Assembly: GCA_964347475.1 (NCBI GenBank)
Contig: CAYFYY010000015.1
Span: forward strand, 877-64,876
DNA from: an uncultured Flavobacteriales bacterium
GTDB lineage: Bacteria > Pseudomonadota > Alphaproteobacteria > UBA8366 > JADFVY01
Reading direction: 5' to 3'
Length of the DNA stretch: 64,000 bases
Position 1 is the first letter of the stretch. Each line of letters begins with the position of its first letter. A program made the position numbers and the translations under genes. The notes beneath the pieces were generated by a model. The model saw only the letters and a program-made list of their open reading frames with translations, had not been told where the DNA came from and searched no databases. Below are positions 4,582 through 37,760 of the stretch, piece by piece.

Positions 4582-5733
4582 TCAGTGCGAAGATCCGTCT
4601 GGATGCACCGCGTCGGGTCCGGCCCGCGCAATACGTCCCGCGATATCTGCCGTTTCCGCGGCAATCGCATCAAGCTCGTCAGATGTGAATTCCGGCCGAT
4701 AATATGCCGGTGGCCTCAGCCGCCCCGCGAACCGTGCCAGCGCCGCCTCGTCGGTCTCAAGGCGGCAATGATGCATCATCCGGCTCATCGTTTCCTGCGG
4801 GTGGTCACAAAGGTTCTCGTAACGGAGGATCATCGTAGCCTTGCGCAGCGCCTCATCGCGATCCAGCAACTCGGCCACATATCCGTAAATCATCGCCCAG
4901 TACCGGGCCCAGCCACGGGCATCTTCGCCGGATTCCCAGAGCGCCTGGATTTCCCGGACCCTGTCGACGTCGCCGCAGTTGATCGGCCGCAGGTCAAGCC
5001 CGAACTCGAAGTGGCCGACGCGACGCATGTAGTCGACAGCCCGCGGATTGCCCCGCTCACCCGCGCAGAACAGCTCGTGCTGCTTGATCAGTGATGCGAC
5101 ATGCCACACGGGATCGCGGACGGGGACGATGAACCGTGCGTCGGCAAACAGCTTGTGCAGATAGCCCATGCGCGTGACGTTGTAGTTTCCCTTCGACAGG
5201 TACCGTGGTTTGGCCCGCGCCGCGAGCAGCTTTCGGATATGCTCGCGATAGAATTTCTCGAACGCCGCGTTCTCGGCTGTTCGGTCCAGCACATGCGATC
5301 GGCCGGGATCGTGGGTGTGGCTGAAAAACGCCATCCAGATTGCCTCTTCGCGGGCTTCGGGACTGTCCGCGGTGACCATGAGGCCGTCCTTGTGGGCGCG
5401 CTCCGCCGCGACGAGGGGGCCACGGCGGGTCCTCTCGACGAACCAATTCCACCACCACGGCGTGAAGACCGGGGGAAAGTCGCGATAGAGGTGCGTTGCA
5501 ACGTCGCCATGCGATGCCAGAATTTCGAGCGCGATCGTCGTGCCGGCGCGGGCCAGACCCGTTACGTAAATCGGTGCCGTGATCGGGACGGACGCAACCG
5601 CATCCGCCAGCACGCGTGTTTCGAGGTTGCCAAGCCCGATCCATAAACGGGGAAATCGCTCGATCAGGCCGCCGACGACATGATCGAAGCCGGAAACCCG
5701 GAATGACGCTTCGATATCCTGGCTTGTTGTCAT
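4582..5733 (-). CDS. Sulfotransferase family protein (PAPS-dependent type)
   Basis: 383 aa with a 5'-PSB-like loop (VTGLARAGTTIALE) and a 3'-PB-like motif (IVPVRDPVWHVASL). Confidence 0.7.
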   Translation of the reverse strand: MTTSQDIEASFRVSGFDHVVGGLIERFPRLWIGLGNLETRVLADAVASVPITAPIYVTGLARAGTTIALEILASHGDVATHLYRDFPPVFTPWWWNWFVERTRRGPLVAAERAHKDGLMVTADSPEAREEAIWMAFFSHTHDPGRSHVLDRTAENAAFEKFYREHIRKLLAARAKPRYLSKGNYNVTRMGYLHKLFADARFIVPVRDPVWHVASLIKQHELFCAGERGNPRAVDYMRRVGHFEFGLDLRPINCGDVDRVREIQALWESGEDARGWARYWAMIYGYVAELLDRDEALRKATMILRYENLCDHPQETMSRMMHHCRLETDEAALARFAGRLRPPAYYRPEFTSDELDAIAAETADIAGRIARAGPDAVHPDGSSH

Positions 5734-5757: not shown

Positions 5758-6525
5758 TCAGCGGATTCGGAACAGCAGCTTGACGGCAACCGACGCAACG
5801 AGGACGACGAGGATGAACGGGGCCTCCCAGCCGCGCATCCAACCCGGACCGAATGGAAGGAACTCCTTGGGGTGCAGCTCGACGCCGATCAGGTCGACCG
5901 GCGCATCGTCCGGCAGCGAACCGAGCGGATTGGCAAAGAAGATGTTCCACCATAAGCGCTTGTGGATAACCGGGACGGGTCGTGCCAGCGGCAGGGTCAG
6001 CATCGGCTGACCGGAGTCGTCGGTCACCTCGACCGTTCGGTCCGCAGCGGGCCACAGCAGGGTCCACGGGCCGTCGCCGGAGACGGGCGCGGTGCCCGGC
6101 CACGCCAGCGGACGGCTGGTCGGCTCACCATAGACGCGAACGGGCTCGCCGGTCTGCGGCAACTCGTAGCCGTAGTTTGCGGCGAGCCATCCCATCATCA
6201 CAAGAACGGGCAGCGAGCCAACGAGGGCGGGTCCAAGTGCGAGGCCGAGGTGCCGCACAGAGGTCGACAGTGATCGGCCCATGACCGCCCATATGCCCGC
6301 GAAGGTACCGTCATACGCGGCGAGTGCCTGACGTGCCTCGGCGGCATCGCGCCGGACGGTCTCCAGTTTGCGCTGCGGCGAGGCGAGCCAATAGAGTGCC
6401 ATCGACAGCGTTCCGGAAATCGTGCCCCACAGGACCAGCCGGGCCGAGTCGGGCAGCAGGTGTGCCAGTGCTAGGTCTGCCGAGCTGAGGAGCGGCGCGG
6501 GTATGTCGAAGATGCCGGTTTCCAT
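5758..6525 (-). CDS. Hypothetical membrane protein
   Basis: 255 aa with hydrophobic segments near the N-terminus, middle and C-terminus. No motif recognised. Same strand as, and directly upstream of, the sulfotransferase. Confidence 0.5.
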   Translation of the reverse strand: METGIFDIPAPLLSSADLALAHLLPDSARLVLWGTISGTLSMALYWLASPQRKLETVRRDAAEARQALAAYDGTFAGIWAVMGRSLSTSVRHLGLALGPALVGSLPVLVMMGWLAANYGYELPQTGEPVRVYGEPTSRPLAWPGTAPVSGDGPWTLLWPAADRTVEVTDDSGQPMLTLPLARPVPVIHKRLWWNIFFANPLGSLPDDAPVDLIGVELHPKEFLPFGPGWMRGWEAPFILVVLVASVAVKLLFRIR

Positions 6526-6543: not shown

Positions 6544-6816
6544 CTATTCGGCGGCGCCGGGAGACGTCGTGTGCTGGCTTTCCTCGGCGGTCGCCGTATT
6601 TTCCGTGGCGGACTGCCTGCCGGCCTTGAATTTACGGTACAGAAGCCGTAGCGGCCAGAACAGGACGATGGCCACGGCGGTTGCGATTGCGGCCAGCACC
6701 GCCAAAAGAGATCCGGCAAGGCTTGCACCCGCGCCCGGTCCGATATAGGCCTGCGCCGCCACGGGTGACAGAACGATCCAGGTGGCACCCATGAGCGCGA
6801 CAACACGAATGATCAT
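6544..6816 (-). CDS. Small membrane protein with N-terminal signal-like segment and YIGPGAG motif
   Basis: Internal ATG at 6816 of ORF 6544..7017 gives MIIRVVALMGATWIVLSPVAAQAYIGPGAGASLAGSLLAVLAAIATAVAIVLFWPLRLLYRKFK, followed by a polar tail. 90 aa. Confidence 0.45.
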   Translation of the reverse strand: MIIRVVALMGATWIVLSPVAAQAYIGPGAGASLAGSLLAVLAAIATAVAIVLFWPLRLLYRKFKAGRQSATENTATAEESQHTTSPGAAE

Positions 6817-7117: not shown

Positions 7118-8191
7118 GTGCCAGCGGTGTCGATTGTTGTAACGGGTGGCGCGGGTTTTATCGGCTCTGCCGTGGTTCGGCAACTGATCGCGGAAACCGA
7201 GGAGACCGTTATCAACGTCGACGCCCTTACCTATGCGGGGAACCTCGATTCGCTGGGTCCGGCGCGCGAAGACGACCGCCATGTCTTCGAGCGGGTGGAC
7301 ATCCGCGACGCGGCGGCGGTGACGCGCGTGTTCGCCCGGCACAGACCACGTGCCGTAATGCACCTGGCTGCCGAATCGCATGTCGACCGTTCGATCGACG
7401 GGCCGGCGGACTTCATACAGACCAATATCGTCGGCACGTATACGCTCCTCGAAGCTGCGCGCACCTATATCGAGACGCTTGATGAGGCGGAGCGCCGGAT
7501 GTTCCGGTTCCATCATGTATCGACCGACGAGGTGTACGGGACGCTGGGTGCCGACGGGCGGTTTACCGAGGAAACGGCGTACCGGCCGAACTCTCCCTAT
7601 TCGGCCAGCAAGGCATCGTCGGACCATCTCGTGCGGGCCTGGGGCGAAACCTTCGGATTGCCGATCGTCATCACCAACTGTTCGAACAACTATGGCCCCT
7701 ATCAGTTCCCCGAAAAGCTGATTCCGGTGCTGATCCTCAAGGCCCTGAACGGCGAGCAGCTGCCGATCTACGGTAAGGGAGAAAACGTGCGCGACTGGCT
7801 TTATGTCGAGGATCACGCCGCGGCACTTCGCCTGGTTCTGGAGCGGGGTGAGCTTGGCGAGACTTACAACATCGGCGGCTCGGCCGAACGCCGGAATATC
7901 GACGTTGCGCGCGCGGTATGTGCGATCCTGGATGAGCTGCTACCGGCGTCGCCGCACCGCCCGCATGAGAACCTCATTACCTTCGTTGCCGATCGGCCGG
8001 GGCACGATCTGCGCTATGCCATCGACAGTTCGAAAATCGAAAGGGAACTGGGATGGACCCCCGTCGAGACATTCGAGACCGGCCTGAGGCGTACCGTCGC
8101 CTGGTATCTCGACAACAGTGAGTGGTGGGAGCGAATTCTTTCCGGCGCATACCGGGTCGAGCGCCTGGGGCTAGGGCGGGGGCGTGCGTGA
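7118..8191 (+). CDS. rfbB: dTDP-glucose 4,6-dehydratase
   Basis: [10 protein letters not shown] Rossmann motif, [10 protein letters not shown] catalytic YxxxK, and full-length RmlB-like architecture. An alternative GTG start at 7127 sits better behind AGGAAAGG. Confidence 0.9.
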
Positions 8192-9084
8192 TGGGTGCGC
8201 AGGCGGTGAAGAAGGGCATCATCCTCGCGGGCGGATCGGGCACGCGCCTGTATCCGATCACCACGTCGGTCAGCAAGCAGCTGCTTCCCGTCTACGACAA
8301 GCCGATGATCTATTATCCGTTGTCAGTGCTGCTGCTGGCCGGTATCCGACAGATCCTGGTGATCACGACGCCGGACGACTCAACGGCGTTCCAGCGGCTG
8401 CTGGGAGACGGATCCCAATGGGGAATAGCGGTTACCTATGCCGTTCAGCCCCGGCCCGAGGGCCTCGCCCAGGCATTCATCATCGGCCGCGATTTTGTCG
8501 GATCAGACCCTGTGTGCCTTATCCTCGGCGACAACATTTTCTACGGCCACGGATTGGCAGGACAGTTGCAGTCCGCCGCGTCCCGAGGCAACGGCGCCAC
8601 GGTTTTCGCCTACTGGGTGCGTGATCCGGAACGATACGGCGTGGTATCGTTCGACAAGGGTGGCCGCGCCATCGATATCGAAGAAAAACCTGCTCAACCG
8701 AAGTCAAATTTTGCGGTGACCGGACTTTATTTCTACGATGCCGACGTCGTGGATATCGCTGCTGGTCTCAAACCGTCGGCACGCGGCGAACTGGAGATCA
8801 GTGATGTCAACCTTGCCTATCTTAAACGCGGTGACTTGCGCGTAGAGATGCTCGGCCGCGGTGCCGCTTGGCTGGACACCGGCACCCACGAGTCGTTGCT
8901 GCAGGCCGCCCAGTTCGTCGAAGTCGTGGAAGCGCGCCAGGGCCTGAAGATCTCGTGTGTCGAGGAGATCGCGTGGCGGATGGGCTTCATCGACAGCAGT
9001 GCCCTGCGTGCCTTGGCGGAACCGCTGGCGAAGAACGGCTATGGGCAATATCTTCTCGATCTCTTGAAACGGCACACCGGATGA
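8191..9084 (+). CDS. rfbA: Glucose-1-phosphate thymidylyltransferase
   Basis: ATG at 8191 overlaps the rfbB stop (GTGATG). [17 protein letters not shown] signature; 297 aa. Confidence 0.9.
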
Positions 9085-9644
9085 AGGTCACGAAGACGGA
9101 ACTGCCCGGCGTCCTGCTTGTCGAGCCGAACCGGTTCGGCGATGACCGCGGTTTCTTTCAGGAAACCTGGCACGCCCGCCGCTATCATGACGCCGGAATC
9201 TCCGGCGCCTTCGTGCAGGACAACATGTCGATGTCGAGCCGCGGCGTGTTGCGTGGTCTGCATTTCCAGCAGCCGAATGGGCAGGGTAAGCTCGTCTTTG
9301 TCCTCGAGGGCGAGGTGTTCGATGTTGCAGTCGACGTTCGGGTCGGATCTCCACATTTCGGCAAATGGACCGGCACGATGCTCTCTGCGGAGAACGGGCT
9401 TCAACTTTTCATCCCGGCCGGCTTTGCCCACGGGTTCTGCGTTACCGGGAAGACGGCATTGTTCGCGTACAAGTGCACCGACTTCTATGACCGCGAGGCG
9501 GAGCGCACGATCCGCTGGGACGATCCCCAGATCGGAATCGAATGGCCGATATCCGCGCCGCGGGTGTCGGACAAGGACGCGGCTGCGCCATCCCTGGCCG
9601 ACATAGCCAGGGAATTCCTGCCGCGCTACGGGGACGGGGAGTGA
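9081..9644 (+). CDS. rfbC: dTDP-4-dehydrorhamnose 3,5-epimerase
   Basis: [30 protein letters not shown] and RGLHFQ motifs; 187 aa. The start overlaps the rfbA stop. Confidence 0.9.
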
Positions 9645-10543
9645 CCGCTCCGATCCTGCTCCTTGGGGGCAACGGCCAGATAGGCTGGGAGCTTCGTCGC
9701 ACGCTTGCGCCATTGGGTCCGGTCACGGCGCTTGAACGCACCGATGTCGATCTCGCCGACGGCAAGGCCTTGCGCAAGGTCGTAAGGGACGCGGCGCCAG
9801 CCCTTATCGTCAACGCGGCCGCATATACGCAGGTCGACCGGGCCGAGAAGGATGCCGCGCTCGCTCAGGCGGTAAACGGCACGGCACCGGGCATTCTTGG
9901 GGAGGAGGCAAACCGCCTCAACGCGGGTCTGGTGCATATTTCCACGGATTACGTCTTCGACGGTGCAGCGGCGCGCCCCTACCGCGAGGAGGACGCCGCC
10001 GCGCCGATCAGCGTTTACGGCAAGAGCAAGCTTGCGGGCGAGGCGGCGGTCGCCGGTTCGGGCTGCGCGCATCTGATCCTGCGCACGAGCTGGGTCTATT
10101 CGATGCGCGGGTCGAACTTCCTGCTCACGATTCGACGCCTGGCCGGCGAACTTGACGAACTCCGGATCGTTGAGGATCAGCGTGGTGCTCCGAGTTGGGC
10201 GCGCATGATCGCCGAGGCGACGGCGGCGATCCTGGTTCGCTGCGGTGCCCCGTCGGATACCGGCCTGTTGACCGAAAAGGGCGGGCTGTACCACCTGACC
10301 GCGTCGGGCCAGACGAGCTGGCACGGCTTCGCTGAGGCGATCGTCGACTGGCTGCGCGCGACGGGCCAGCCGGTCCGCTGCCGCCGTGTCCTTGCGATCC
10401 CGACGGCCCAATATCCGACCCCGGCGAAGCGACCCGCCAACTCCCTGCTGGATTGCACGAAGCTGCGCGATGCCTTCGGGATCGCGCTGCCCGACTGGCG
10501 CGACCAGTTGGCGTTGTGCACCGAGACTGGGTCTTGCGGTTAA
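9641..10543 (+). CDS. rfbD: dTDP-4-dehydrorhamnose reductase
   Basis: GTG at 9641 overlaps the rfbC stop. ILLLGGNGQIGWEL Rossmann motif and YGKSKLAGE catalytic motif; 300 aa. Confidence 0.85.
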   Translation: MTAPILLLGGNGQIGWELRRTLAPLGPVTALERTDVDLADGKALRKVVRDAAPALIVNAAAYTQVDRAEKDAALAQAVNGTAPGILGEEANRLNAGLVHISTDYVFDGAAARPYREEDAAAPISVYGKSKLAGEAAVAGSGCAHLILRTSWVYSMRGSNFLLTIRRLAGELDELRIVEDQRGAPSWARMIAEATAAILVRCGAPSDTGLLTEKGGLYHLTASGQTSWHGFAEAIVDWLRATGQPVRCRRVLAIPTAQYPTPAKRPANSLLDCTKLRDAFGIALPDWRDQLALCTETGSCG

Positions 10544-10602
10544 GGGCGGCGAAACATTGAGCCGCCGGTTGGTCGTTCAGTCGACCTGTTCCGGTCTTTC
10601 CA

Positions 10603-11961
10603 TCACGGGTCCATCTTCAAGAACGGGAGTTCGTCGTACGCGAAACGCATGGCGCTTGGAACCACCGCGACGTAATCGGTGCCATCCTTTTGCCGCCGTC
10701 CGGGAGTCCGGTATTGCCAGACCACTTCTTTGTCCCGGGTCACTTCGATGATACGTCCGTTTTCCGACTCGACGATCAGGATGTTGTCGTTTGGCAGCCG
10801 TTGTTGCACGCCATAACCCAGCGTAAACAGCGGGTCCTCCGGACGGCCTGCGTACAGCCATTCGGTCCGCTGCGTCACCGGGTCGAACTCGATGACACGC
10901 GATCCCAGTTCGGGCCCGATATGGCCCAGGTTGTCGAAGATGAGCATGTTGCCGTTCGGCAGGATTTCCGGCTCATGCTGGCGGAACCACATGCCCCCCA
11001 TGGACCAGACGATCTTCTCCTGTGACGGATCGAGCACGGCGATCATGTTCATCTCACGCATCGAGATGAGAAGCTGGCCTGGACGTGTGAAGGGCAGGCG
11101 ATCCGCTTGACGTTGGTCGATGAGATTTATCGTGTTGGTATGGGTATAATCGCCCAGGAGCGAATCGAAGTGCATGGCCGTCAGGCTGGGCCAGTGCACC
11201 GAATTGTAGAACGCGTCGATGATATAGATCTTCTTCCTGATTTCTCCCGTATCCGAGATGACGGCGACGTAGTCCATGATGTAAGGCGTGTGCAATCGCG
11301 GCAGGCCAAGATAGCTCTTGGTGCTGATCTCGTGGCCGAGCGCGTAAATCGTCCCATCCTCGTTGACCGCAAGGTCGTGATGCAGGGACTCGCTTATCCG
11401 CCAGATCAGGTGCGAATTCCTGTCCAGCTTGACCAGACCCATTCCGTACGGCGTTACGTCCGGCGATTCGACGACGATTATGATATCGCCGTTCGGAAAG
11501 ACGACGGCTCTGCGCGGATATACTGTCGGCGCGTTTTCGGAACCTTGCCCTTGCTGCGCGGTGGTCCAGTCGATCTCGCCCGGCAACGTCCAGCGATGCG
11601 CCATTTCCCCTTCCATGGTCACAAGATCGACGGCCGATTCGTCGCTTCGCAGCACCATGGTCAGGCCATTGAACGCCCGGGTCCGATCATAGCGGCTGAT
11701 GACCGGATCATCGTCGGAAATCGGCGTAACGACAGGTCGCCACAGATTTCCGTACGGCCCGGCATCGGACAGCGGTACGACCAGAGTGCTCAGGACGGCC
11801 GCATCCCGCAGCACGTGGTTGAATGGGCTGTTGCCTCGCAGAGCCACGACGGCACCGGCAACAACCAGGAGAAAGACAAAGGCGATTGCTGCGAGTGCCA
11901 TGGGCACCGCTGCTCGGACGGAAAGGAACGATCTAAGGCGCTGCGGCAAATTCTTCTGCAT
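10603..11961 (-). CDS. Arylsulfotransferase (ASST)-like beta-propeller protein with N-terminal membrane anchor
   Basis: 452 aa. The N-terminal TM is AVPMALAAIAFVFLLVVAGAVVAL. GDYTHTNTINLI and repeated propeller-like blocks resemble the ASST family. Assignment rests on motif memory only. Confidence 0.6.
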   Translation of the reverse strand: MQKNLPQRLRSFLSVRAAVPMALAAIAFVFLLVVAGAVVALRGNSPFNHVLRDAAVLSTLVVPLSDAGPYGNLWRPVVTPISDDDPVISRYDRTRAFNGLTMVLRSDESAVDLVTMEGEMAHRWTLPGEIDWTTAQQGQGSENAPTVYPRRAVVFPNGDIIIVVESPDVTPYGMGLVKLDRNSHLIWRISESLHHDLAVNEDGTIYALGHEISTKSYLGLPRLHTPYIMDYVAVISDTGEIRKKIYIIDAFYNSVHWPSLTAMHFDSLLGDYTHTNTINLIDQRQADRLPFTRPGQLLISMREMNMIAVLDPSQEKIVWSMGGMWFRQHEPEILPNGNMLIFDNLGHIGPELGSRVIEFDPVTQRTEWLYAGRPEDPLFTLGYGVQQRLPNDNILIVESENGRIIEVTRDKEVVWQYRTPGRRQKDGTDYVAVVPSAMRFAYDELPFLKMDP

Positions 11962-12063
11962 TCGATCAGTTGGGGCAGATAGGTGTGGATCCCGTGCAGA
12001 TGGATTCAGAACCGGAGGTTAATCTCTGGTGTGGCGCGTCGATGGATCTACGGACCGGCGGCA

Positions 12064-13407
12064 TTACCGGACTGCGCGCCAACCGTCGATTCGCCAAACG
12101 CTCGGAATTGCGCGAAATTGCGGCCAGTAACGTGAGAGGAAACCAGCAGCCAGGATGAGGAATGCCCAGCCATAGAGAGACGCGAAGAAAAAGTGACTTG
12201 CCCGGGAGTCCTCGGCGCCGATGACCTCCATCAACCGGTACAGCAGCCCCACCAGCGCGAAATGAAACAGTACCGGCATGGCGAGCACAGCGCCTCCCAG
12301 CTTCATCGCCGAGTTCCACCTGAATGAGAGAAAAATCGGCAAGAGGAACAACACATAATGAATCCAGCCGATCGGCGACGCCAGGACTGTCGCCACCAGC
12401 GCGACGGCGCTGGCATCTTCACTGCGCGGTTGGAAACGCCAGGCCCACAATGCGATACCGGCAAGCATCAGGAAGCCGAGAGCAACTCCGATCCATAAGA
12501 CGCCCGCGCGCGCCGACATTGCGGCGAGCGACAAATTGGTTCCAAATAGAATTCGTCCCGGATCGCTTGTCATCCAGGCGTCTAGCCACTGTACATAGAC
12601 CCCCGGTCCGAAGATGACGGCCGGCAGGATGCTCAGGATTGCGGCACCTGCAAGCGCCGCCAGAGCGGTGCGCCTGTATCCGGCAATGAACAGGACCACC
12701 GGCCAGACCAGGAAATTGGGTTTCATGGCGACAAGAATGCCCATCATGAGGCCGGCCGATACGGGGCGCTCCCGCTCCAGCAGAATCCAGGCGGCAACCG
12801 AACAGACCAGCAGCAGGATGTATATTTGACCAAGATCCAGCGTGTCCCAGAAGCCCGGGAAGCAGGCGGCCCACAAGATCATCCATTTGCTCGGGCTCTC
12901 CTGGCGCGTCGAAGACAGCACGATCATCGTGGCGACGAACAGTGACAGGGACAGCCACCAGGTAATCTGGAAGGCCAGTCCAGGTTCGATCATCGACAGT
13001 GGCGCGAAAACCAGGAGGGAGACCGGCGGGTTCAGGTTCGGATTAAACCCGTGGAAAAAGCGCGTCTCGACAAAGAAGCTGAGCTGGTACTCGGCATATG
13101 GATTCAAACCGCGACGCGCCGCAGCGCCGGATTCGTAAAACGTACCGAAATCACGGAGCTGCTTGCGAACCTCGGGCAGTTCGCGCTGCAGCGACGACAG
13201 ATCTTCGTTGAAGGTATCGATATGCGCGGTTAGGACACGAAGACTGTCCTCGGGCTTGGTAACGAAGTATTGGAAGACGATAAAGAACACCAGGAGTAAG
13301 GCGGCTGTTGCACGGGCAGCCGGATGGTTCCAGAAACGAACGGGAATTGACTCCGGGGGTGCCGATTCCGGTGTTCGTTCCGGGTCGAGGGCCTCTGCAT
13401 CGGACAT
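12064..13407 (-). CDS. Polytopic membrane glycosyltransferase-like protein (DUF2029/GT87-like, GT-C fold), paralog 1
   Basis: 447 aa with more than 8 hydrophobic segments. The N-terminal loop QLRDFGTFYESGAAARRGLNPY and the blocks MKPNFLVWPVVLF and SPIGWIHYVLFLLP are shared with 15486..16808. Confidence 0.6.
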   Translation of the reverse strand: MSDAEALDPERTPESAPPESIPVRFWNHPAARATAALLLVFFIVFQYFVTKPEDSLRVLTAHIDTFNEDLSSLQRELPEVRKQLRDFGTFYESGAAARRGLNPYAEYQLSFFVETRFFHGFNPNLNPPVSLLVFAPLSMIEPGLAFQITWWLSLSLFVATMIVLSSTRQESPSKWMILWAACFPGFWDTLDLGQIYILLLVCSVAAWILLERERPVSAGLMMGILVAMKPNFLVWPVVLFIAGYRRTALAALAGAAILSILPAVIFGPGVYVQWLDAWMTSDPGRILFGTNLSLAAMSARAGVLWIGVALGFLMLAGIALWAWRFQPRSEDASAVALVATVLASPIGWIHYVLFLLPIFLSFRWNSAMKLGGAVLAMPVLFHFALVGLLYRLMEVIGAEDSRASHFFFASLYGWAFLILAAGFLSRYWPQFRAIPSVWRIDGWRAVR

Positions 13408-13776
13408 GGATCGGTGGTTCCAGATTCTGACGCGGCGATGCCATCGGCAACACCGAACAACGTGCCTATCGGCGATCTGACGGCCTCCTTCTCACTGCGG
13501 CCGGCAGCCGCTGCGGACGAGAAATACCGCTCCCAACCGCACATATCTCCAACAGCACAATTGTTAGAAGTTCCGTATTAACAATCAGTTAATTAATATC
13601 AAGGAAAGAAAACCAGACAGATATTTGATGTAAAGGCGGGAATATTTCACGTCCCGACTGAATACATATGGCCATTGGTCGCACATGGCACATCGAGGGC
13701 CCAAATCGGTCGTGACATCGGATAAACAGGCGGCAATCGCAAGACAACCTGGAAACGACACTCCTCGTGGAGCGCC

Positions 13777-15381
13777 TCAGTCCCGCTGACGAATGGCGTA
13801 AAGCGTGAAGTACGAGCCTTCGTGCAACGCCGTCAACCGGCCGGGAAGCGGATTTTCAGCGACTCCGAAATGGGTCAGAAGCACGTAATCGAATCGGCTT
13901 GGCCAATCTGTCCAGAAGTCCTGCATTGCAATGAAACCGGCAGGTGGCGTGCCCGCATTTCCATTGCCTGCCGATCGCACCAGCAACGCAACGTCGATCG
14001 GGGCACCAAATGCCGTGTCGATGTCCAGCCGTGCCGCTGCGGCGCGAACGGGCTGCTTGGTCGGATCGGTAAAGAGGGTTGGAACGAAGGCGCCGCGGTC
14101 GATGACTGCAAGCGCTGACAGATGCCAGTACGCGTAGTCGAATCGTGAGTCGCCGGCCACAACCGGCGCGTTGCGCCGCTGAACGGGCAGGATCGCGGCG
14201 CCGCGCTCGATCACCCGTGCGGCCGTTCGGAACTCCGCGAAATCGCGGTCCATGCGGCGCCATTCGAGTGCGACGTCGAATAGGCGGGCGCCGAGCAGCA
14301 CGGCACCGGCAATCAGGACCGCAATGGCGATGCGGGGGCTGACGGTCCGCGGGCGCAGTCCGGCCACGAGAAGCAGCGCCACGACAGTCGGCAGGCGCAG
14401 ATCGGCATACCAGATACTGCCCCAAGTGCCTTGAACCCAGAACGGCATCGCCAGTGCGCCCGCGGTCAGCGCCGCCAGCGGCAGACGGAGCGGGTACGCC
14501 AGGCGAAGCCGGCCGGTGGCGAAGCCGGCAAGCGGCACTGCCGCCGCGAACAGGAACACCGCGGCGTCGACAGGTTTCAGATAGGCCAGGGTCGGTGACC
14601 ATACGGCGCGAACCTTCGCGAGGAACGGACCGTACAGAAAGCCGTGCTCGGTGGCGTCCGGCATTGTGCCGAGAACGAGCAACGCTGCGGGCAGAAACGG
14701 CCAGGCGACGACAAAGGCCTGCCGGGCCGCGATGCGCCGGTCGCGGCGCCCTGTGGCGAGCAGGCGGGGAAACTCGTATCCGGCAACGCAGACGCCGTAC
14801 ACCGCCAGCGCGAACAAATGGGCGAAAAACAGCCCGACCAGTGCTGCCGGGAACAGGGCCCAGCGGATCCAGGGCGGCCCGCGTTCGCTGGCAATCCAGC
14901 CGGCGAACAGGGCCAGTGCGAGGCCGATGGCGAACAGGTAGTTGAGGAATCCCATGATCAGGAGGTGGTTGTACAGCAGCATGAAGACCGCCGTCGGCCA
15001 AAGCCCGATGTCGCCGTGCAGAACCCGGTGCAGGGCAAGCGTGCCTCCGACCAGTGCCAGCATTGTCAACACGACGAATACCCGACCTGCGATCTGAAGG
15101 GGCAAAACAGCCGCGAGCGGTTGCATGACGAGGTCCATCGCAAGATTCGGCATGGCGCCCCAGGCAACCTGGTAATTCTCGGCAAGCGCGGGGTCGGAAT
15201 CGATGGCAGTAAGGACGTGCACGCGCGCGAGATGATTCGGGTAGTCGACGAGGCCCGGAATATCGACGAAGGCCAGCGGGAGGAGGACGGCCAGTCCCAG
15301 CACGACATAGACGAGACCGCGCCGACGGGCGCCGATAACAAGGTCCGATGGCAGTACCGTGGCGGCGGCCGTGCCGTTCAT
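13777..15381 (-). CDS. Polytopic membrane protein with C-terminal soluble domain (function unknown, possibly GT-C-like)
   Basis: Internal ATG at 15381 of ORF 13777..15582 gives MNGTAAATVLPSDL... Many TM segments are followed by a non-hydrophobic tail of about 190 aa. No catalytic motif recognised. Confidence 0.5.
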   Translation of the reverse strand: MNGTAAATVLPSDLVIGARRRGLVYVVLGLAVLLPLAFVDIPGLVDYPNHLARVHVLTAIDSDPALAENYQVAWGAMPNLAMDLVMQPLAAVLPLQIAGRVFVVLTMLALVGGTLALHRVLHGDIGLWPTAVFMLLYNHLLIMGFLNYLFAIGLALALFAGWIASERGPPWIRWALFPAALVGLFFAHLFALAVYGVCVAGYEFPRLLATGRRDRRIAARQAFVVAWPFLPAALLVLGTMPDATEHGFLYGPFLAKVRAVWSPTLAYLKPVDAAVFLFAAAVPLAGFATGRLRLAYPLRLPLAALTAGALAMPFWVQGTWGSIWYADLRLPTVVALLLVAGLRPRTVSPRIAIAVLIAGAVLLGARLFDVALEWRRMDRDFAEFRTAARVIERGAAILPVQRRNAPVVAGDSRFDYAYWHLSALAVIDRGAFVPTLFTDPTKQPVRAAAARLDIDTAFGAPIDVALLVRSAGNGNAGTPPAGFIAMQDFWTDWPSRFDYVLLTHFGVAENPLPGRLTALHEGSYFTLYAIRQRD

Positions 15382-15485
15382 GGCGCCGCTCCTTGCGCAG
15401 GTGTTGCAGGGATTCGCGGTGCCGGGCGGACCCCCGCTGCCTGGCCCTTGTGCCGGATCGTGCCCATGCCTCCGGCCGCCGACCT

Positions 15486-16808
15486 TCAGCGTGAGTCCGC
15501 CGGCGGTACGGCGGCGAACGAGGACGTGTTCGGCGCGGCCAGCTGGCGGGCGACCGGCACGGCCACGAGCAACAGGCCCCATATGTATACCGAGCCGAGC
15601 GTCACCTCGACCCAGGTCGGGCCCTCGAACAGGGAATTAGCGATGATCCGCGGCGTTGCCAGCAACACGGCACCGGCAATCATGGCCCGCGACCAGCGGA
15701 TCGAGAACAGCGGCGGCAGCAGGAACAAGACGTAATGGATCCACGCGATGGGCGAGGCGAGAAGAGCCACGAACATGGCGATGAGGCCGGCGTCGTGCGC
15801 ATCCGGCCGCCGCCGCCAGGCCCACCATGCGGTGGCCAGCAGCAGGGCCAGCGCGGCGCCCCTGCCGAGCCACGGGATGTCCAGGCGGCCGGCGTAGGCG
15901 ATGACCGACATGTTGGTGACCCACAGCGCGCGACCCGGATCGTCGTTGGCCAGCACGGCGTACCATTGCGGATAGACCTGCCAACCGAAGAGCAGGATCG
16001 GCGCCGCCGACAGTGCCGCGAAGGCGAGCAACGCCGGGACCGCGGTTCGCCGGTGCCCGGCGAGCAGCAGGACCACCGGCCAGACCAGGAAATTCGGTTT
16101 GAACGCGGCGACCAGCCCGATCAGCACGCCGGCGGCGGCGAAGCGGCCGCGATCCTGGAGCACCCAGGCGCCGAGCGCTGCGACCATAAGTGGAACGTAA
16201 ATCTGGCCGAGGAACAGCGTGCCCCAGAAGCCCGGCAACGAGAGCGCCCACAGGACGATCCAGCGGCCGCCCTGCGGCTGATAGGTGCGCGCCAGATAGG
16301 CAAGGGCGGCGAGGAAGACAACCAGTGAACTCCACCACAGCAGTCGGAACGTGACGGCCGGGTCGAGCAGCGAGACCGGCGCCATCAGAAGCAGTGAGGC
16401 CGGCGGGTTGAGGTTCGGATTGGCGCCGCTGAAGTGCTTGATCTCGACACGGTAGGACAGGTCGTGGATCTCGTATGGATTGCGCCCTTCCAGCGCCGCA
16501 CGGCCCGACTCGTAGAAGCTGCCGAAATCCCGCAGGCTCTCGTCCGGAAACGAAATCATGAACTGGTACAGGATGTTCAGGACGATGACGAAGGTCGCCA
16601 CCGCCGCCACGAGTCCCGCAATACTGATGCCGGCCCGACGATCGGGCGGCGCGGCAGCAGGGGTCCGCTGAATTTCAAGGGCGCCGGGCCTGGGTCGGTG
16701 CATCGGACGTTCAGTCGCTGTTACGATGGGGTCGCGCCGATCGGTCCGCCTGCAGGCCGCGTCCGACGAGTTGGGGCGGCAAACCGACCGGGAAATCCGG
16801 TCCGTCAA
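15486..16808 (-). CDS. Polytopic membrane glycosyltransferase-like protein (DUF2029/GT87-like), paralog 2
   Basis: 440 aa with SLRDFGSFYESGRAALEGRNPY, FKPNFLVWPVVLLLAGHRR and SPIAWIHYVLFLLPP matching paralog 1. An alternative start at the ATG at 16703 is possible. Confidence 0.6.
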   Translation of the reverse strand: MTDRISRSVCRPNSSDAACRRTDRRDPIVTATERPMHRPRPGALEIQRTPAAAPPDRRAGISIAGLVAAVATFVIVLNILYQFMISFPDESLRDFGSFYESGRAALEGRNPYEIHDLSYRVEIKHFSGANPNLNPPASLLLMAPVSLLDPAVTFRLLWWSSLVVFLAALAYLARTYQPQGGRWIVLWALSLPGFWGTLFLGQIYVPLMVAALGAWVLQDRGRFAAAGVLIGLVAAFKPNFLVWPVVLLLAGHRRTAVPALLAFAALSAAPILLFGWQVYPQWYAVLANDDPGRALWVTNMSVIAYAGRLDIPWLGRGAALALLLATAWWAWRRRPDAHDAGLIAMFVALLASPIAWIHYVLFLLPPLFSIRWSRAMIAGAVLLATPRIIANSLFEGPTWVEVTLGSVYIWGLLLVAVPVARQLAAPNTSSFAAVPPADSR

Positions 16809-16887: not shown

Positions 16888-18300
16888 GTGGCAACATTCG
16901 CTTCGAAACCGCCCGACCGGCTACCCCGCGGCCTTGCCCCCGAACGGTTCCTGCGCGGCCGCTTCGGCGACTGGGTGGCGCGGCCCTGGCTGGACCGCGC
17001 GGCCCTCGGCAGCCTGTCCGGGTATTTCCCGTTGAGCCGGCTGTGGGCGGCGGCGTCAGTGGCCCAGGGCGACCGCGACCGGTTTCGCGATGAGGTGCCG
17101 CTGGCCCGCGCCGCCATGCCCGACGACTGGTTGCTGGAGCCCATGCTGGCGGGCGTGCACAGGGCCGTCCGGCGCCACCGGCGGGTCGACCAGGCATGGC
17201 GCCGACGGTTCTTCTCGCCGGTCGCTTCGCCGTCGGCTCGCGTGCTCGTCGAGACGGAACTGGAGCGCCGTGCCGCCGCGCGCGTCTGGATGGCGTCGCG
17301 CGGCCTGCTCATGCCGTTGCTGGCGAAGGCGAAGCCGGCGCCGGTCCGTTGGTCGATCCCGGCCGTGGGCGATCTCGAAGGCCAGCTGGGCACCGCCCTC
17401 GCCGATCCCGCTTCGTATTACGCTGTGCCGGACCCGCTGCCGGAGATCGAGCGATCGCATGCCGTGCCGGGGCCGGACGGCATGGAATGCTGGTTGCGCT
17501 TTGCCTCGCCGGGGCGGGCAACCGGCGACACAGCTTGGGCCAAGATATACGAACCCGAGACGTTGCCGGCGCGGGCGCCGACCCTGATCCTGTGCCACGG
17601 CCTTGCGGTCGAGACCGAGATGTGGGGCACCGGAATCGGCACGCCGCATGCACTGATCCGCTCGGGCGTCCGGCTGGTTGCGCCGGAGGCGCCCTGGCAC
17701 AACCGACGTATGGCCGCCGGCCGCTGGGGCGGCGAGCCGCTGCTGGCGACGGCGCCGCGCGGCGCGCCGGACCTGTTCCAGGCGGCACTCGGCGAGATTG
17801 CGACGCTGATCGGCTGGGCGCGCGGGCAGGGCAGTCCCGTGGTGGCGCTCGGCGGCACCAGCCTCGGCGCGCTGACAAGCCAGCTGGCGGCGGTCCAGGC
17901 CCGATACTGGCCGGAGCCGCTGCGGCCCGATCTGCTTTACCTCGTGGCGACCGGCGGCAGCGTGCAGCAAGTTGCGGTGGGCAGCGAGTTGACGGACGTG
18001 TTCGGGCTGGGCGACCTCTTGGCGGCCGCCGGCTGGGACGATGCGGCACTGGCCAGGTTGGAGCCGCTGACGGATCCGCTGGGCGCGCCGGTCATGCCGG
18101 CGGAGCGCATCGTCATGGTGCTCGGCCGGGCCGACAACGTGACCCGTTTCGACAAGGGCCGCGAACTCGCCGCACGCTGGCAGGTGCCGGATAACAACCT
18201 GTTCATCCGCGAGCAGGGGCATTTCTCGATCCCCCTGGGCCTGCTGCACGATGACGCGCCGCTGCGGCGTCTGCGGGCCTTGATGGGCAAGACGGTCTGA
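16888..18300 (+). CDS. Alpha/beta-hydrolase fold protein with long N-terminal extension
   Basis: 470 aa (GTG start). LILCHGL, a nucleophile elbow GGTSLGA, and C-terminal D...H candidates. Confidence 0.55.
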   Translation: MATFASKPPDRLPRGLAPERFLRGRFGDWVARPWLDRAALGSLSGYFPLSRLWAAASVAQGDRDRFRDEVPLARAAMPDDWLLEPMLAGVHRAVRRHRRVDQAWRRRFFSPVASPSARVLVETELERRAAARVWMASRGLLMPLLAKAKPAPVRWSIPAVGDLEGQLGTALADPASYYAVPDPLPEIERSHAVPGPDGMECWLRFASPGRATGDTAWAKIYEPETLPARAPTLILCHGLAVETEMWGTGIGTPHALIRSGVRLVAPEAPWHNRRMAAGRWGGEPLLATAPRGAPDLFQAALGEIATLIGWARGQGSPVVALGGTSLGALTSQLAAVQARYWPEPLRPDLLYLVATGGSVQQVAVGSELTDVFGLGDLLAAAGWDDAALARLEPLTDPLGAPVMPAERIVMVLGRADNVTRFDKGRELAARWQVPDNNLFIREQGHFSIPLGLLHDDAPLRRLRALMGKTV

Positions 18301-21963: not shown

Positions 21964-24279
21964 CTATTGCTTGGACAGGGCCTGGACGGCACGGTTCATG
22001 ACATCCCGGTGCTGCTCGTTGGTGACCCAGCCCGGCGAATTGACCTTGGCCCAGAATGCCGGGTCCGCCATGTTCTGGTGGCAGCCCATGCACAGCCCCG
22101 TGCGCTCCATCTTCTCGCGCATCTGCTGCGGCAGCGGGCCGGTCAGCGGCCAGTGCGAGCCGATGCTGACGAGCTGTTTGCCGTCGCGGGTGACGATCTG
22201 CGACAAATCGTGGTCGAGGCTCGGGATCGCCGGCGACTGCACCTGGGTCTGGCGCGGGATGGTCTGTCCCTGGGCGGTCTCGAGATCAACCACGAAACCC
22301 TTGTCGTAGCCGTTGAGGAACCGCCCGTCCTCGATGCCGTAGCCCAGCGTCTTCGGGTTGTCGTGGCAGCTCTCGCAGGTGCGGGCCTGGCGGCCGGCCG
22401 TGTGCGGCTGCACCGCGGCATGGTCGAGGCCCTTGCCCTCCGGTGTCTTCCAGGTCTCGTTATGGACCACAGTCTTGCCGTCCTTGTCGATGACCGTGGT
22501 GATGACCTGGCAGCCCGGCATCAGCGGGCTGACGCGCCCCTCGCCGTTGATGCCGAGGATCGGCGTCTCCCAGCGCAAGTAGGACCGGGTCTCCGACACC
22601 TTGCCCGGGCCGGTGAGCCCGTTGGTGCCGAGCGCGTTGTCTGCCGTCAGGCCGTCTTCGCCGCGCGAGTTGGCGTTGAGCAGCCAGTCGACGTCGGTCT
22701 TGCCCTCCGAGTAGTCGACGGTGATGTGGCAGCCATAGCATTGCGGTGCCCAGTCGGCATGGCAGGCATAGCACTCCATCGAGTCCATGTGCTGGGCGAT
22801 GCTGCCCATGGCGACACGGCTGTTGATATTCTTCCAGGCATTGTCGGCAGCCAGCTGTTTGAGCACAGGGACCTCGAATTCGAGACCGGCGGCCGAATGC
22901 AGGATCACCTTGTTGCCCCTCTTGACCACGTTGCCGAAGGGGTTTCCGCGGGCGGTCAGCAAATAGCCGTCCTCGGCCTCATACTGCGTGGCGAACGCCA
23001 TGTAGTCCGGGACGTCTTGCGCCAAGCCGCGCGGCGTTTGGGCGATGGCCTGCTGAAACTCCTCGCCGTAGCCGAGCGGCAGCTCCCACGGGTACTGGGC
23101 GACCGAGCCGTGGCAGTCGGCGCACTCGATCTCGACCTGCGCCAGCGTCGTGCCGGGCAGGTTGCCATCGCCGTGCATGTCGATCGAGGTATGGCAGTCC
23201 TGGCACAGCATGCCGCCTTCCGGGTTGCCCGGCCGGCTTTCCTGCGAATGGTGCAGGTCGTCCTTGATGTACAGGTAATTCTTGGTGTGCAGGGCCGGCT
23301 GCTTGCCGCCGCTCGAGTCGTAGGGACTGCCGTACGGGAACTCCATGATGCCCTGGTAGCTGACGCCGATCCGCTTGCCCCGGTTGTGGCAGGAATTGCA
23401 GCTCTCCGTCGGGATGCCGCTGTAGCTGACGTCGCCCACGGTGACTTGCGACTTTTGCGTCGCCTGCATGCGGTGGACCAGCAGCTTGCCCGGCAGCTCC
23501 TTGTCGATCGTCGGGTCGCCGCCCTCGTACTTGCCTTCGTTGGAGTACGGCACGTGACATGCCGAGCAGCCGGTGCCGCGGTAGTCGCCGCGCTTCTCAC
23601 GCCCGGTCACGCCGACATGGCAGCGCTGGCACTGCTGGCGCGAATAGGTGACTCCGGCCATGTTCGGGTGGTCCGGGATCAGGTTCACGTCGACCTCGGG
23701 CGGTTGTTTCATCTCTGTGGGGAACTGGTCCGGATGGGCCGCCGCCATCGCGGTCATGTAGGCCTTGTAGGCGTCGGTGCCGATCGCCGGCGTCTGGCCG
23801 TCATCGTCGGTGATGTTGTAGTTGCCCCACACCGACTTGTAGTCGTCCTGCAACCCCCACGACCAGAAATTGCCCTGCAACTTGCCGGCCTCCGTATTCA
23901 TCAGGGATTTCTGCAGCCGCTCGGCGTAGCCGTCATGACACTGCCCGCAGGTGTTCTTGGCGATCCAGACGCTGCCCGGATCGGGGTAGAACCGCTGCGG
24001 GCCACCGGCCGCCCGCAGGTCCCGGGGGCTACCGCTGTGTGCCGCCTCCGTGGTCGTCGCGGCGGGGTTGCCGCCATGGCAGACGACGCAACCGGCCGGA
24101 TCCCCAACATCGGCGCCCATCGCCTCGATGGTGTCCATCATCGGGCCGTCGCTGAACTTCTCGATGCCCTGGTGGCACGCAAGGCAACCCGATTGCTGGG
24201 CCGGCGCGCCCGTCGCTGTGAACAATGACAGCGCCACGACGACGGGAAGTATCAGGCTCGGACTGACGAGATATCGCAT
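21964..24279 (-). CDS. Periplasmic multiheme cytochrome c (12 CxxCH motifs)
   Basis: 771 aa with a signal peptide. CxxCH motifs: CLACH, CVVCH, CGQCH, CQRCH, CSACH, CNSCH, CQDCH, CADCH, CYACH, CYGCH, CESCH, CMGCH. Confidence 0.85.
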   Translation of the reverse strand: MRYLVSPSLILPVVVALSLFTATGAPAQQSGCLACHQGIEKFSDGPMMDTIEAMGADVGDPAGCVVCHGGNPAATTTEAAHSGSPRDLRAAGGPQRFYPDPGSVWIAKNTCGQCHDGYAERLQKSLMNTEAGKLQGNFWSWGLQDDYKSVWGNYNITDDDGQTPAIGTDAYKAYMTAMAAAHPDQFPTEMKQPPEVDVNLIPDHPNMAGVTYSRQQCQRCHVGVTGREKRGDYRGTGCSACHVPYSNEGKYEGGDPTIDKELPGKLLVHRMQATQKSQVTVGDVSYSGIPTESCNSCHNRGKRIGVSYQGIMEFPYGSPYDSSGGKQPALHTKNYLYIKDDLHHSQESRPGNPEGGMLCQDCHTSIDMHGDGNLPGTTLAQVEIECADCHGSVAQYPWELPLGYGEEFQQAIAQTPRGLAQDVPDYMAFATQYEAEDGYLLTARGNPFGNVVKRGNKVILHSAAGLEFEVPVLKQLAADNAWKNINSRVAMGSIAQHMDSMECYACHADWAPQCYGCHITVDYSEGKTDVDWLLNANSRGEDGLTADNALGTNGLTGPGKVSETRSYLRWETPILGINGEGRVSPLMPGCQVITTVIDKDGKTVVHNETWKTPEGKGLDHAAVQPHTAGRQARTCESCHDNPKTLGYGIEDGRFLNGYDKGFVVDLETAQGQTIPRQTQVQSPAIPSLDHDLSQIVTRDGKQLVSIGSHWPLTGPLPQQMREKMERTGLCMGCHQNMADPAFWAKVNSPGWVTNEQHRDVMNRAVQALSKQ

Positions 24280-32932: not shown

Positions 32933-34090
32933 TCAATCTTGAATCCCGCCGACCGCGACCCGATGCACGCGCTGCGCGATCGCCGTGACGATCTCGTAAT
33001 TGATCGTCCCCAGCTTGTTGGCCAGTTCGTCGGCCGTAATCTCCTCCTCGCCCTGCCGACCGATCAGCACCACCTCGTCGCCCGGCCGCATATGGCCGCG
33101 CAGCGTGGTCACGTCGACGAGGCTCTGGTCCATGGTGATGCGGCCGACCTGCGGGCATCGCCGGCCCCTTACCAGGACATCCATATCGTTGGAGAGCCGG
33201 CGCATCAGGCCATCGCCGTAGCCCACGGGAACGGTGGCGATCAGAGAGTCCCGTTCGGCATGGAACGCGTGCCCGTAGCTCAGACCCGTGCCGGCGGGGA
33301 CCTCTTTCAGGAAGGTGATCCGGCTCTTCCATTCGAGGACCGGCTGCAGCTCCCGGACAAGTGGATTCACGATCTCCGCGGAAGGCCTGAGCCCGTAAAT
33401 CGCAATGCCGGGCCGGACGGCGTCGAAATGCGATTCCGGGAGATCGAGGAGGGCCGCGCTGTTCGCCATATGTCGGAATTCGACCCCGTAACCGCTGGTC
33501 GCTTCGGCGACCTGCCGGAAGCGCTCGAGCTGCGCCAGCGAATAAGCCTTGTCGGTCTCGTCCGCCCGCGGGAAGTGGCTCATCAGTCCGCGCAAGCGCA
33601 ACGCCGGCAGGTTGCGGCAACGCTCGAGGAAGGCCGCGACGTCGTCGGGTCGGACGCCGATCCGCCCCATGCCCGTGTCCACCTTCAGGTGGACCGGGAC
33701 GGGCCGTTCCGCCGCTTCCGCAGCACGCGCCAGCGCCTCCGCCATCTCCAGCGTGCAGATGACGGGCTCGCAGTGATGGGCGACGATCGCCTCTGCGTGC
33801 TCCGGCAGCGTCGCGGAAAGGATGACGAAGGTGGCGTCGATGCCGGCTTCCAGCAGGGCGGCGGCCTCGAAGACATGCGCCACGCACAGCGTATCGTAGC
33901 CGAGCCGGACCAGCTGCCGGGCGATGATCTCGGCGCCGTGACCGTAGGCGTTTGCCTTTATCGCCGGCCACAACGGCCGTCCGCCGGCTGCCGCCCGCAG
34001 CAGGCGTATATTGTGCGCCAAGCGGCCGAGATGGATCTGCGCCTTGGTCAGATGCGAATCGCGGGGGCCGCTTGCCAGGGGTTCCTCCAT
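32933..34090 (-). CDS. alr: Alanine racemase (PLP-dependent)
   Basis: ATG at 34090; 385 aa. AIKANAYGHG PLP-lysine motif and the C-terminal YEIVTAI block. Confidence 0.8.
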   Translation of the reverse strand: MEEPLASGPRDSHLTKAQIHLGRLAHNIRLLRAAAGGRPLWPAIKANAYGHGAEIIARQLVRLGYDTLCVAHVFEAAALLEAGIDATFVILSATLPEHAEAIVAHHCEPVICTLEMAEALARAAEAAERPVPVHLKVDTGMGRIGVRPDDVAAFLERCRNLPALRLRGLMSHFPRADETDKAYSLAQLERFRQVAEATSGYGVEFRHMANSAALLDLPESHFDAVRPGIAIYGLRPSAEIVNPLVRELQPVLEWKSRITFLKEVPAGTGLSYGHAFHAERDSLIATVPVGYGDGLMRRLSNDMDVLVRGRRCPQVGRITMDQSLVDVTTLRGHMRPGDEVVLIGRQGEEEITADELANKLGTINYEIVTAIAQRVHRVAVGGIQD

Positions 34091-34094
34091 CGGC

Positions 34095-35192: not shown

Positions 35193-35214
35193 CGCACTGC
35201 CCTTCCGGTGCGTC

Positions 35215-37410: not shown

Positions 37411-37760
37411 CGGACGAGGTCCTCCCAGAAGCGTCCCGCCAGCAACGCGTCTCCCGCTTCGCGCGGGGCGATCCGCCTGGCCTTCGCCAGTTCGAGGACC
37501 AGGCGTCCCGCGCCATGGCCGAGAAGATTGCGCTCCTGCATCATGGCCACGAGGTTGCCGGCCTCGATGCTGGAAAAGCCCATCCGCAGCAGCACCGAGC
37601 GCTCGATGGATGGCGTCGTACGGGTCCGGGCCTCCGCGACCAGCGGTTCGACGATCTTTTCGACGAGTTGCCAGAAGTAGTTGTGAAGATCCTCGTCCGA
37701 CATGTCCTTGAGCCGGGCACGGCGCTTCGCGAAATCGTCCGGTCGTTCAACGCATGTCAT
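37407..37760 (-). CDS. oraS: D-ornithine 4,5-aminomutase, small (S/alpha) subunit
   Basis: 117 aa, overlapping the oraE start by 4 nt. Size and position match OraS. Confidence 0.75.
   Translation of the reverse strand: MTCVERPDDFAKRRARLKDMSDEDLHNYFWQLVEKIVEPLVAEARTRTTPSIERSVLLRMGFSSIEAGNLVAMMQERNLLGHGAGRLVLELAKARRIAPREAGDALLAGRFWEDLVR

Follow-up and report, generated by a model that had tools for sequence, protein, structure and literature searches.

We analysed a 64-kb window (64,000 nucleotides of contig CAYFYY010000015.1, assembly GCA_964347475.1; "the window" below means this whole stretch) from an uncultured alphaproteobacterium, in which a gene for a 452-residue arylsulfotransferase (ASST)-like protein lies on the minus strand at 10603-11961. 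A first-pass annotation, made from the DNA letters alone, had grouped this gene with three membrane-protein genes (two GT87 paralogs and a 534-residue protein, here mem534) and had joined it to the neighbouring dTDP-rhamnose genes. The conserved partners of ASST are instead three minus-strand genes that lie outside the interval then considered, beyond the rhamnose genes: a small protein of ~90 residues (6544-6816), recognized by its motif and by ortholog comparison; p255, a 255-residue protein with three transmembrane (TM) segments (5758-6525), recognized through its homologs and without a named family; and ST3, a Sulfotransfer_3 sulfotransferase (4582-5733; PF13469). The minus strand of the window keeps the order ASST ... 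small-p255-ST3, and the inverted genes for dTDP-L-rhamnose synthesis, rfbB-rfbA-rfbC-rfbD (7127-10543, plus strand), sit between the first and the second of the four.

A p255 alignment was scanned against one genome per species in GTDB, which yielded 43 loci. An ASST gene is present in 26 of these 43 genomes, and in 25 the genes form one contiguous string on a single strand, ASST-small-p255-ST3. The carriers belong to the Alpha- and Gammaproteobacteria, the Desulfobacterota and others, and include the cultured Pelagibius litoralis DSM 21314, Thiohalobacter thiocyanaticus, three Chelativorans species, Nitratireductor luteus and two Mesorhizobium strains. In P. litoralis and T. thiocyanaticus (L041 and L043) the four genes are closely packed, meeting end to end or sharing bases at their stop and start codons, and unrelated housekeeping genes flank the module on either side. 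ST3 lies directly 3' of p255 in most of the 43 loci, and a Thiotrichaceae-type metagenome genome (L003) encodes three tandem ASST paralogs followed by homologs of the small protein, p255 and ST3 (42-49% identity). The unit is thus widespread and conserved across phyla, and its four genes very probably act together as one functional unit.

A reciprocal scan from the ASST side covered 80 metagenomic loci (the 30 closest and 50 more distant matches). Twenty of the 30 closest loci have at least 600 bp of downstream sequence, and the small-protein motif and/or p255 was found in 10 of those 20, as against just 3 of the 50 more distant loci; ASST is followed directly by ST3 in three further metagenomic loci (L066, L076 and L120). 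GT87, mem534, p470 (a conserved 470-residue neighbour, described below) and rml genes were found in none of the 80. Likewise, among the 43 p255 loci, GT87, mem534 and p470 are absent outside the near relatives of the window and a lone rfbB-like match occurs in L052, so the synteny check in relatives proposed by the first-pass annotation associates GT87, mem534 and rml with the module only in the window's own lineage.

The ASST-like protein matches PF14269 (Arylsulfotran_2; E 2.9e-25, 89.7 bits against a cut-off of 27) and PF05935 (32.1 bits against a cut-off of 24.2), and hydropathy analysis predicts a single N-terminal hydrophobic segment (residues 23-41) with basic residues before it. With both families above cut-off and an N-terminal TM segment, its earlier description as ASST-like and membrane-anchored holds, and we predict a membrane-anchored periplasmic protein with an extracytoplasmic domain. 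A six-bladed beta-propeller fold is suggested by profile matches to Pfam and PDB only. An alignment of 30 homologs shows no variation at H194, H195, H274, N276 and H329 and almost none at R302. A single-sequence search of PDB gave nothing useful, and only profile searches reached 9KF6 and, very weakly, E. coli AssT. In the profile search, the HxN, SxR, QHD, FDN and LPNGN motifs aligned with PDB 9KF6 and 9KF4 (E 3e-7 and 5e-6), for which the depositor's name 'Sulfotransferase' is the sole identity, a literature search by code having found nothing relevant. E. coli AssT (PDB 3ELQ) was a marginal match (profile E 0.9). The active-site set of AssT comprises His252, His356, Asn358, Arg374 and the catalytic His436 (PMC13426309), which the H...HxN...R...H pattern of the window ASST appears to resemble, as an unaligned equivalence given a 3ELQ match of only E 0.9.

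ST3 (PF13469, E 6.7e-16) has no TM segment, and its GLARAGTT and VRDP..S stretches, which resemble a 5'-phosphosulfate-binding and a 3'-phosphate-binding loop, align weakly (E 0.013) with the loops for 3'-phosphoadenosine-5'-phosphosulfate (PAPS) in tyrosylprotein sulfotransferases, the nearest solved relatives. We predict that it is a cytoplasmic PAPS-type sulfotransferase; the 'PAPS-independent' sulfation assigned to this region at first overlooks this PAPS-type enzyme, which is co-inherited with ASST. In the small protein a signal peptide that ends in A-x-A leads into the motif Y-[IV]-G-P-G-[AS]-G, after which come a single TM segment, a basic W-P-x-R cluster and a polar tail that varies. 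The motif stands next to p255 in 40 of the 43 p255 loci, and the window protein is 42% identical to the L003/L004 ortholog; searches of Pfam and NCBIfam at E<=10 returned nothing meaningful. If it is cleaved as its sequence pattern suggests, the mature protein would begin with an invariant Tyr at the periplasmic surface of the membrane.

Nothing meaningful was found for p255 in Pfam or NCBIfam at E<=10 either, and it belongs to no family in these databases. Its homologs fall into 81 clusters at 90% identity, all of them 'hypothetical', and into 362 representatives at 50% identity (E<=1e-30). An AlphaFold (AF2) model was obtained with a predicted local distance difference test score (pLDDT) of 88. 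Together with hydropathy and the positive-inside rule, this model suggests that the N-terminus faces outward, with a helical hairpin (~51-92) in the cytoplasm between TM1 and TM2 and a beta domain in the periplasm between TM2 and TM3; the invariant motif H188-K-R-x-W-W-N194 would lie in the beta domain. We infer that p255 is a transmembrane scaffold. The protein sequences predict a cytoplasmic ST3 and a periplasmic ASST, with p255 and the small protein embedded in the intervening membrane.

The periplasmic component of the module is exchangeable for other phosphoryl- or sulfuryl-transfer folds. Loci of Lysobacterales, Wenzhouxiangella and Chromatiales carry no ASST, and there the small protein, p255 and usually ST3 adjoin proteins of the alkaline-phosphatase superfamily (L019-L021, L029, L039, L045-L046 and L050-L051). 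These partners are PF01663 Phosphodiest proteins (632-666 residues, with a lipoprotein-like N-terminus) and PF00884 Sulfatase proteins (~500 residues). In one 967-residue protein (P0359), a periplasmic Phosphodiest-type (PF01663-type) enzyme is fused to the N-terminus of p255, an arrangement that agrees with an outward-facing N-terminus and speaks for a physical pairing of p255 with the periplasmic enzyme.

Upstream of ASST on the same strand lie GT87b (12064-13407), mem534 (13777-15381) and GT87a (15486-16808). All four minus-strand reading frames are present as first described, and the convergence of rfbBACD with them is borne out by Pfam and TIGRFAM matches and by the gene calls of the closest relative (L001). 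The two GT87 (DUF2029) proteins match PF09594 at about four times the threshold (GT87b, E 2.7e-29, 103 bits; GT87a, E 4.3e-28, 99.1 bits; cut-off 25) and are 43% identical over 380 residues by BLASTP; the blocks quoted earlier as evidence that they are paralogs (RDFG.FYESG, KPNFLVWPVVL and SPI.WIHYVLFLLP) lie within this alignment. Both are polytopic, with 9-10 hydrophobic segments (about 10 in GT87b), and both keep the Asp-containing RDFG.FYESG block after TM1. A single-sequence search found no PDB match for GT87a; against the mycobacterial mannosyltransferase equivalog NF009915 the GT87 proteins score 19 bits, at a cut-off of 413. The TTG start of GT87a is uncertain; an ATG at 16703 would give 405 residues, in keeping with the 406-residue GT87 that stands at the same position in a near relative (L007). 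Among the 43 p255 loci, GT87b was found only in the window and in L001/L012.

The first-pass annotation had called mem534 an unrelated, GT-C-like polytopic protein, and structure prediction agrees. The AF2 model is confident (pLDDT 91.8; predicted template modelling score, pTM, 0.92) and its top ten Foldseek matches in PDB are all GT-C proteins (AftD, ArnT, ALG12, ALG9, STT3, PglB and Pmt4; probability 0.97-1.0, TM-score 0.38-0.47), which supports a GT-C-fold protein of a family without a database name. The C-terminal soluble domain is about 140-170 residues long, not the ~190 proposed. Searches of Pfam and NCBIfam gave no family for mem534, and its 271 homologs are all 'hypothetical' and without a Pfam domain; those named by taxon are mostly alphaproteobacterial. 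D46 and H50, just past TM1, are invariant in an alignment of 38 sequences. Homologs lie near rfb genes, GT2 and GT87 in L007, as three paralogs next to a p470 homolog and rfbD in L008, and, for a distant homolog, near GtrA, GT2 and methyltransferases in L010. An equally long 534-residue protein of L003 was considered as a further homolog and rejected, as tblastn showed no similarity.

Divergent from the cluster is p470 (16888-18300, plus strand), a conserved protein recognized through its homologs, for which Pfam and NCBIfam searches at E<=10 gave nothing meaningful and no family. Its GGTSLGA stretch resembles the G-x-S-x-G hydrolase motif. It recurs as a divergent neighbour of mem534 homologs (L001, L002, L008 and L013), in L002 as a 64%-identical protein beside mem534 paralogs, and may be a dedicated partner of the mem534 GT-C family.

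The guanine-plus-cytosine (GC) profile of the locus is not flat, as an earlier hand count of a dip at 10.6-13.8 kb had suggested. Across the window GC averages 0.6525 (standard deviation 0.03 in 1-kb windows); over 10603-13776 it is 0.58, the lowest of the 64 kb, and of 253 1-kb windows the 12 poorest in GC all come from 10.5-13.25 kb. A weaker depression (0.60-0.63) covers rfbB/A and the sulfotransferase gene at 4582-5733. GC at third codon positions follows the same pattern, at 0.705 in GT87b (z = -2.5) and 0.74 in ASST and at a host-like 0.848 in GT87a. A gap of 369 bp (13408-13776; 52% GC, from the sequence and the GC profile) divides the pair GT87a-mem534 from the pair GT87b-ASST, so the four genes do not form one tight operon, and this gap is the probable boundary of a swapped cassette. 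No Rfam RNA family was found in 4-19 kb, the gap included; promoter- and terminator-like sites were in no excess over shuffled sequence, with none above chance in the gap; and a repeat search found no mobile-element ends. The sole repeat candidate is a weak 25-nt inverted pair (10561-10585 and 12038-12062; 76% complementary) that almost exactly brackets the ASST gene and may have arisen by chance or been left over from a cassette exchange.

In L001, which is 94% identical to the window, synteny is kept. The rfb genes adjoin the small protein, p255 and ST3 only in the lineage of the window (L001/L012, L007/L015, L013, L014 and L016). L007 carries, in one gene set, a GT87, a 652-residue protein, mem534, GT2, rfbDCAB, the small protein, p255, ST3, a Wzx-type flippase, a second sulfotransferase and RgpF; L013 and L014 resemble it, and in none of these three is an ASST gene adjacent. 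A 650-707-residue protein and a GT2 occupy, in relatives, the position that low-GC GT87b and ASST hold in the window and L001. Because GC is at its lowest at 10.6-13.8 kb and relatives have different genes there, GT87b and ASST look like a recently exchanged low-GC cassette. After small-p255-ST3, L007 (18599-21494) and L014 (11556-14905) encode the Wzx-type flippase and a shorter second sulfotransferase (Sulfotransfer_1/3), then RgpF in L007 and a methyltransferase in L014; the window has none of these. From this variation, sister strains would seem to make different rhamnan-like products, sulfated or methylated. L003 (3512-14258) offers another, independent example of the sulfation module next to genes for periplasmic glycosylation: upstream of its ASST paralogs lie a GT2-GtrA fusion, a PMT_2 GT-C protein, the 534-residue protein, a match to the PF05199 C-terminal domain of GMC oxidoreductases and a 156-residue protein.

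GT-C enzymes use lipid-linked donors, not dTDP-rhamnose. The 64-kb window encodes no polyprenyl-phosphate-sugar synthase, GT2, GtrA or Wzx, and the link from rhamnose to the GT87 proteins is thus tentative, since GT-C donors are lipid-linked and the window has neither lipid-sugar synthase nor GtrA. A three-component system of the Gtr type (GtrA/GtrB/GtrC) was considered for the window and rejected, as the window has neither GtrA nor GtrB.

In the window's lineage the glycan island is bordered on one side by genes for SUF iron-sulfur (Fe-S) assembly and ferredoxin and on the other by 2-oxoacid:ferredoxin oxidoreductase genes. Between the latter and mnmA lies a gene for a 771-residue multihaem cytochrome (21964-24279, minus strand; MtrC/MtrF domain II/IV, cytochrome c7/c3 and a weak magnetochrome (MCR) match), and a similar cytochrome is found at the start of L008. 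Farther along, at 32933-40530 (minus strand), this apparently alphaproteobacterial genome holds a gene run typical of anaerobic ornithine/lysine fermentation: two alanine-racemase-like proteins, a B12-dependent D-ornithine/D-lysine aminomutase, a pyridoxal-phosphate enzyme and 2,4-diaminopentanoate dehydrogenase.

We propose, at a little short of an even chance, that the four-gene unit is a trans-membrane sulfation relay. Cytoplasmic ST3 would use PAPS to make a sulfate-ester donor, probably phenolic; p255 and the small protein would present this donor at the periplasmic face, or carry it there; and ASST would form a histidine intermediate and from it transfer the sulfuryl group to an acceptor in the periplasm. 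For the window's lineage, a plausible acceptor would be a rhamnose-containing envelope glycan that the three GT-C enzymes build or decorate. We regard this glycan-acceptor step as doubtful; it draws its plausibility from the window's lineage (as in L007, L013 and L014), where the module core lies within a variable glycan island, and from the independent L003. A more specific scheme, in which ST3 loads a membrane-borne aryl group, p255 holds that group under ASST and ASST sulfates envelope molecules, with an alkaline-phosphatase-fold enzyme taking the last step in the variants, is in our estimation unlikely; the loaded group may be the invariant N-terminal Tyr of the cleaved small protein. For the region as a whole, the chances seem to us about equal that it is, or is not, a strain-variable envelope-glycan locus with a conserved, self-contained sulfation module woven in. 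Several observations weigh against the relay and its link to glycans. The module contains no donor-synthesis gene (for example, for a type III polyketide synthase, PKS) and no recognisable transporter, p255 is without a detectable structural relative (its model found no PDB fold match), the match of ASST to E. coli AssT is weak (E 0.9) and PF14269 proteins are annotated by homology only. L007, L013, L014 and L016 retain small-p255-ST3 without an adjacent ASST, which would be either dispensable or encoded elsewhere in these genomes. Most module-bearing genomes have no glycan-gene neighbours, no conserved neighbour points to an acceptor, and the connection of GT-C and rhamnose genes to the module is seen in two lineages only, so that it could be coincidental co-location in a polysaccharide island.

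The pathway envisaged in the first-pass annotation, with ASST, three GT-C enzymes and rfbBACD together making and sulfating a rhamnose-containing periplasmic glycan through a PAPS-independent sulfotransferase only, draws on adjacent genes on the same strand, on synteny retained in the 94%-identical L001, on a mem534 paralog directly upstream of a 47%-identical ASST in L002, and on enzymes all predicted to work at the periplasmic face. The general idea of extracytoplasmic glycan chemistry with sulfation is reasonable. ASST, GT87 and dTDP-rhamnose do not form a conserved pathway, however: GT87, mem534, p470 and rml genes are near 0 of the 80 metagenomic ASST loci and, but for the lone rfbB-like match in L052, lie only in near relatives among the 43 p255 loci. 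The conserved partners of ASST also include a PAPS-type sulfotransferase, near relatives have the GT-C and rfb genes and no ASST, and GT-C enzymes cannot take dTDP-rhamnose directly in a window that lacks a lipid-sugar synthase; we consider this pathway improbable. We attach equally little weight to self-modification, in which ST3 and/or ASST would act on the invariant Tyr of the small protein, giving a sulfated membrane peptide that is itself the product or a sulfuryl carrier, the glycan genes being unrelated. The A-x-A|Y-(I/V)-G-P-G-A-G motif recurs without change in 40 of the 43 loci, the closest solved structures to ST3 are those of tyrosylprotein sulfotransferases, and ASST enzymes accept tyrosine-containing peptides, with phenolic sulfates as donors (PMC13426309). 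Yet the similarity of ST3 to the tyrosylprotein sulfotransferases is weak (E 0.013), the Tyr lacks the acidic context usual at their sites, signal-peptide cleavage is predicted from the sequence pattern alone, and a protein carrier used once would be costly; moreover, the cleaved Tyr would be periplasmic whereas ST3 would be cytoplasmic, so sulfation would have to come before export.

The locus could also be a coincidental mosaic of independent genes, in which ASST scavenges or detoxifies environmental phenolic sulfates, or is no sulfotransferase, and the GT-C proteins serve ordinary assembly of lipopolysaccharide or exopolysaccharide. Scavenging or detoxification of environmental phenolic sulfates has been proposed for E. 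coli AssT, many ASST-like genes lie in unrelated contexts, and 10.6-13.8 kb is compositionally foreign, with variation among relatives at this position. Against such a mosaic stand the strictly conserved order of four overlapping genes across phyla, the invariance of the catalytic-type ASST motifs, and the fusion of p255 to an enzyme in P0359, which argues for a physical and functional unit; we judge the mosaic improbable as well.

The closest precedent for the sulfation relay is caprazamycin biosynthesis, where PAPS-dependent Cpz8 makes phenolic sulfate esters, from which the ASST-type Cpz4 takes its sulfate (Tang et al. 2013, cited in PMC4257720 and PMC13426309); Cpz4 sulfates a sugar hydroxyl (PMC13426309). 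As there, PAPS-type and ASST-type sulfotransferases are co-encoded in the module (as one gene string, in 25 genomes), and the first enzyme would charge a phenolic carrier that the second uses as donor. Unlike the caprazamycin system, the module has no type III PKS or other carrier synthase (none is in the window, and the flanks in L041 and L043 are unrelated), its enzymes are predicted to lie on opposite sides of the inner membrane, it includes two conserved membrane proteins without a known family, its hosts are Gram-negative, and it is no secondary-metabolite cluster. E. coli AssT (3ELQ; PF05935) is periplasmic, as predicted for the window ASST, which matches the Pfam ASST families and has an HxN...R...H pattern that appears to resemble the AssT residues. 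The window protein is shorter (452 residues against 571 in the 3ELQ chain), has an N-terminal TM anchor, shows nothing matching the N-terminal beta-sandwich domain of AssT, is closer to PF14269 and to PDB 9KF6/9KF4 (profile E 0.9 for 3ELQ) and has other gene partners, dsbL/dsbI not being seen beside it.

Similar comparisons apply to the membrane proteins. Like the actinobacterial GT87/DUF2029 mannosyltransferases that use polyprenol-phosphate-mannose (for example PimE), the two GT87 proteins are polytopic, carry a conserved Asp loop (RDFG) after TM1 and pass the Pfam threshold fourfold; they differ in their proteobacterial host, in having no lipid-sugar synthase nearby and in a very weak NF009915 match. 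The mem534 model matches the folds of ArnT, AftD, PglB/STT3 and ALG9/12, and mem534 has an invariant Asp just after TM1; it stands apart from these and from GtrC-type enzymes in lying outside the Pfam and NCBIfam families and in its own C-terminal domain. The window differs from Gtr (GtrA/GtrB/GtrC) loci in having no GtrA or GtrB, and GtrA with GT2 occurs near the distant mem534 homolog of L010 and upstream of the L003 ASST genes. Each enzyme type at the locus is already known, as is two-step sulfation in one antibiotic pathway. Literature searches found no description of the ASST-small-p255-ST3 combination. This unit and the variant with alkaline-phosphatase-fold enzymes appear to be undescribed, as do the families of p255, the small protein and mem534.

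Among marine and halophilic bacteria, sulfated polymers are found in the envelope, and bacterial sulfation has been described as cytoplasmic and PAPS-dependent. To our knowledge, no route is established by which sulfate esters are installed outside the inner membrane. A conserved module that unites a PAPS enzyme in the cytoplasm and a sulfuryl-transfer enzyme in the periplasm with two dedicated membrane proteins offers a concrete, genetically testable hypothesis, for which cultured carriers exist. It also gives a context to three unannotated families, namely p255 (at least 362 representatives at 50% identity), the AYxGPGAG small protein and mem534, and a candidate physiological role to the PAPS-independent ASST-type enzymes that are sought as biocatalysts. 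If true, a sulfate relay would be a general bacterial answer to sulfation outside the cytoplasm, where PAPS is unavailable, comparable to the use of polyprenol-phosphate sugars in periplasmic glycosylation.

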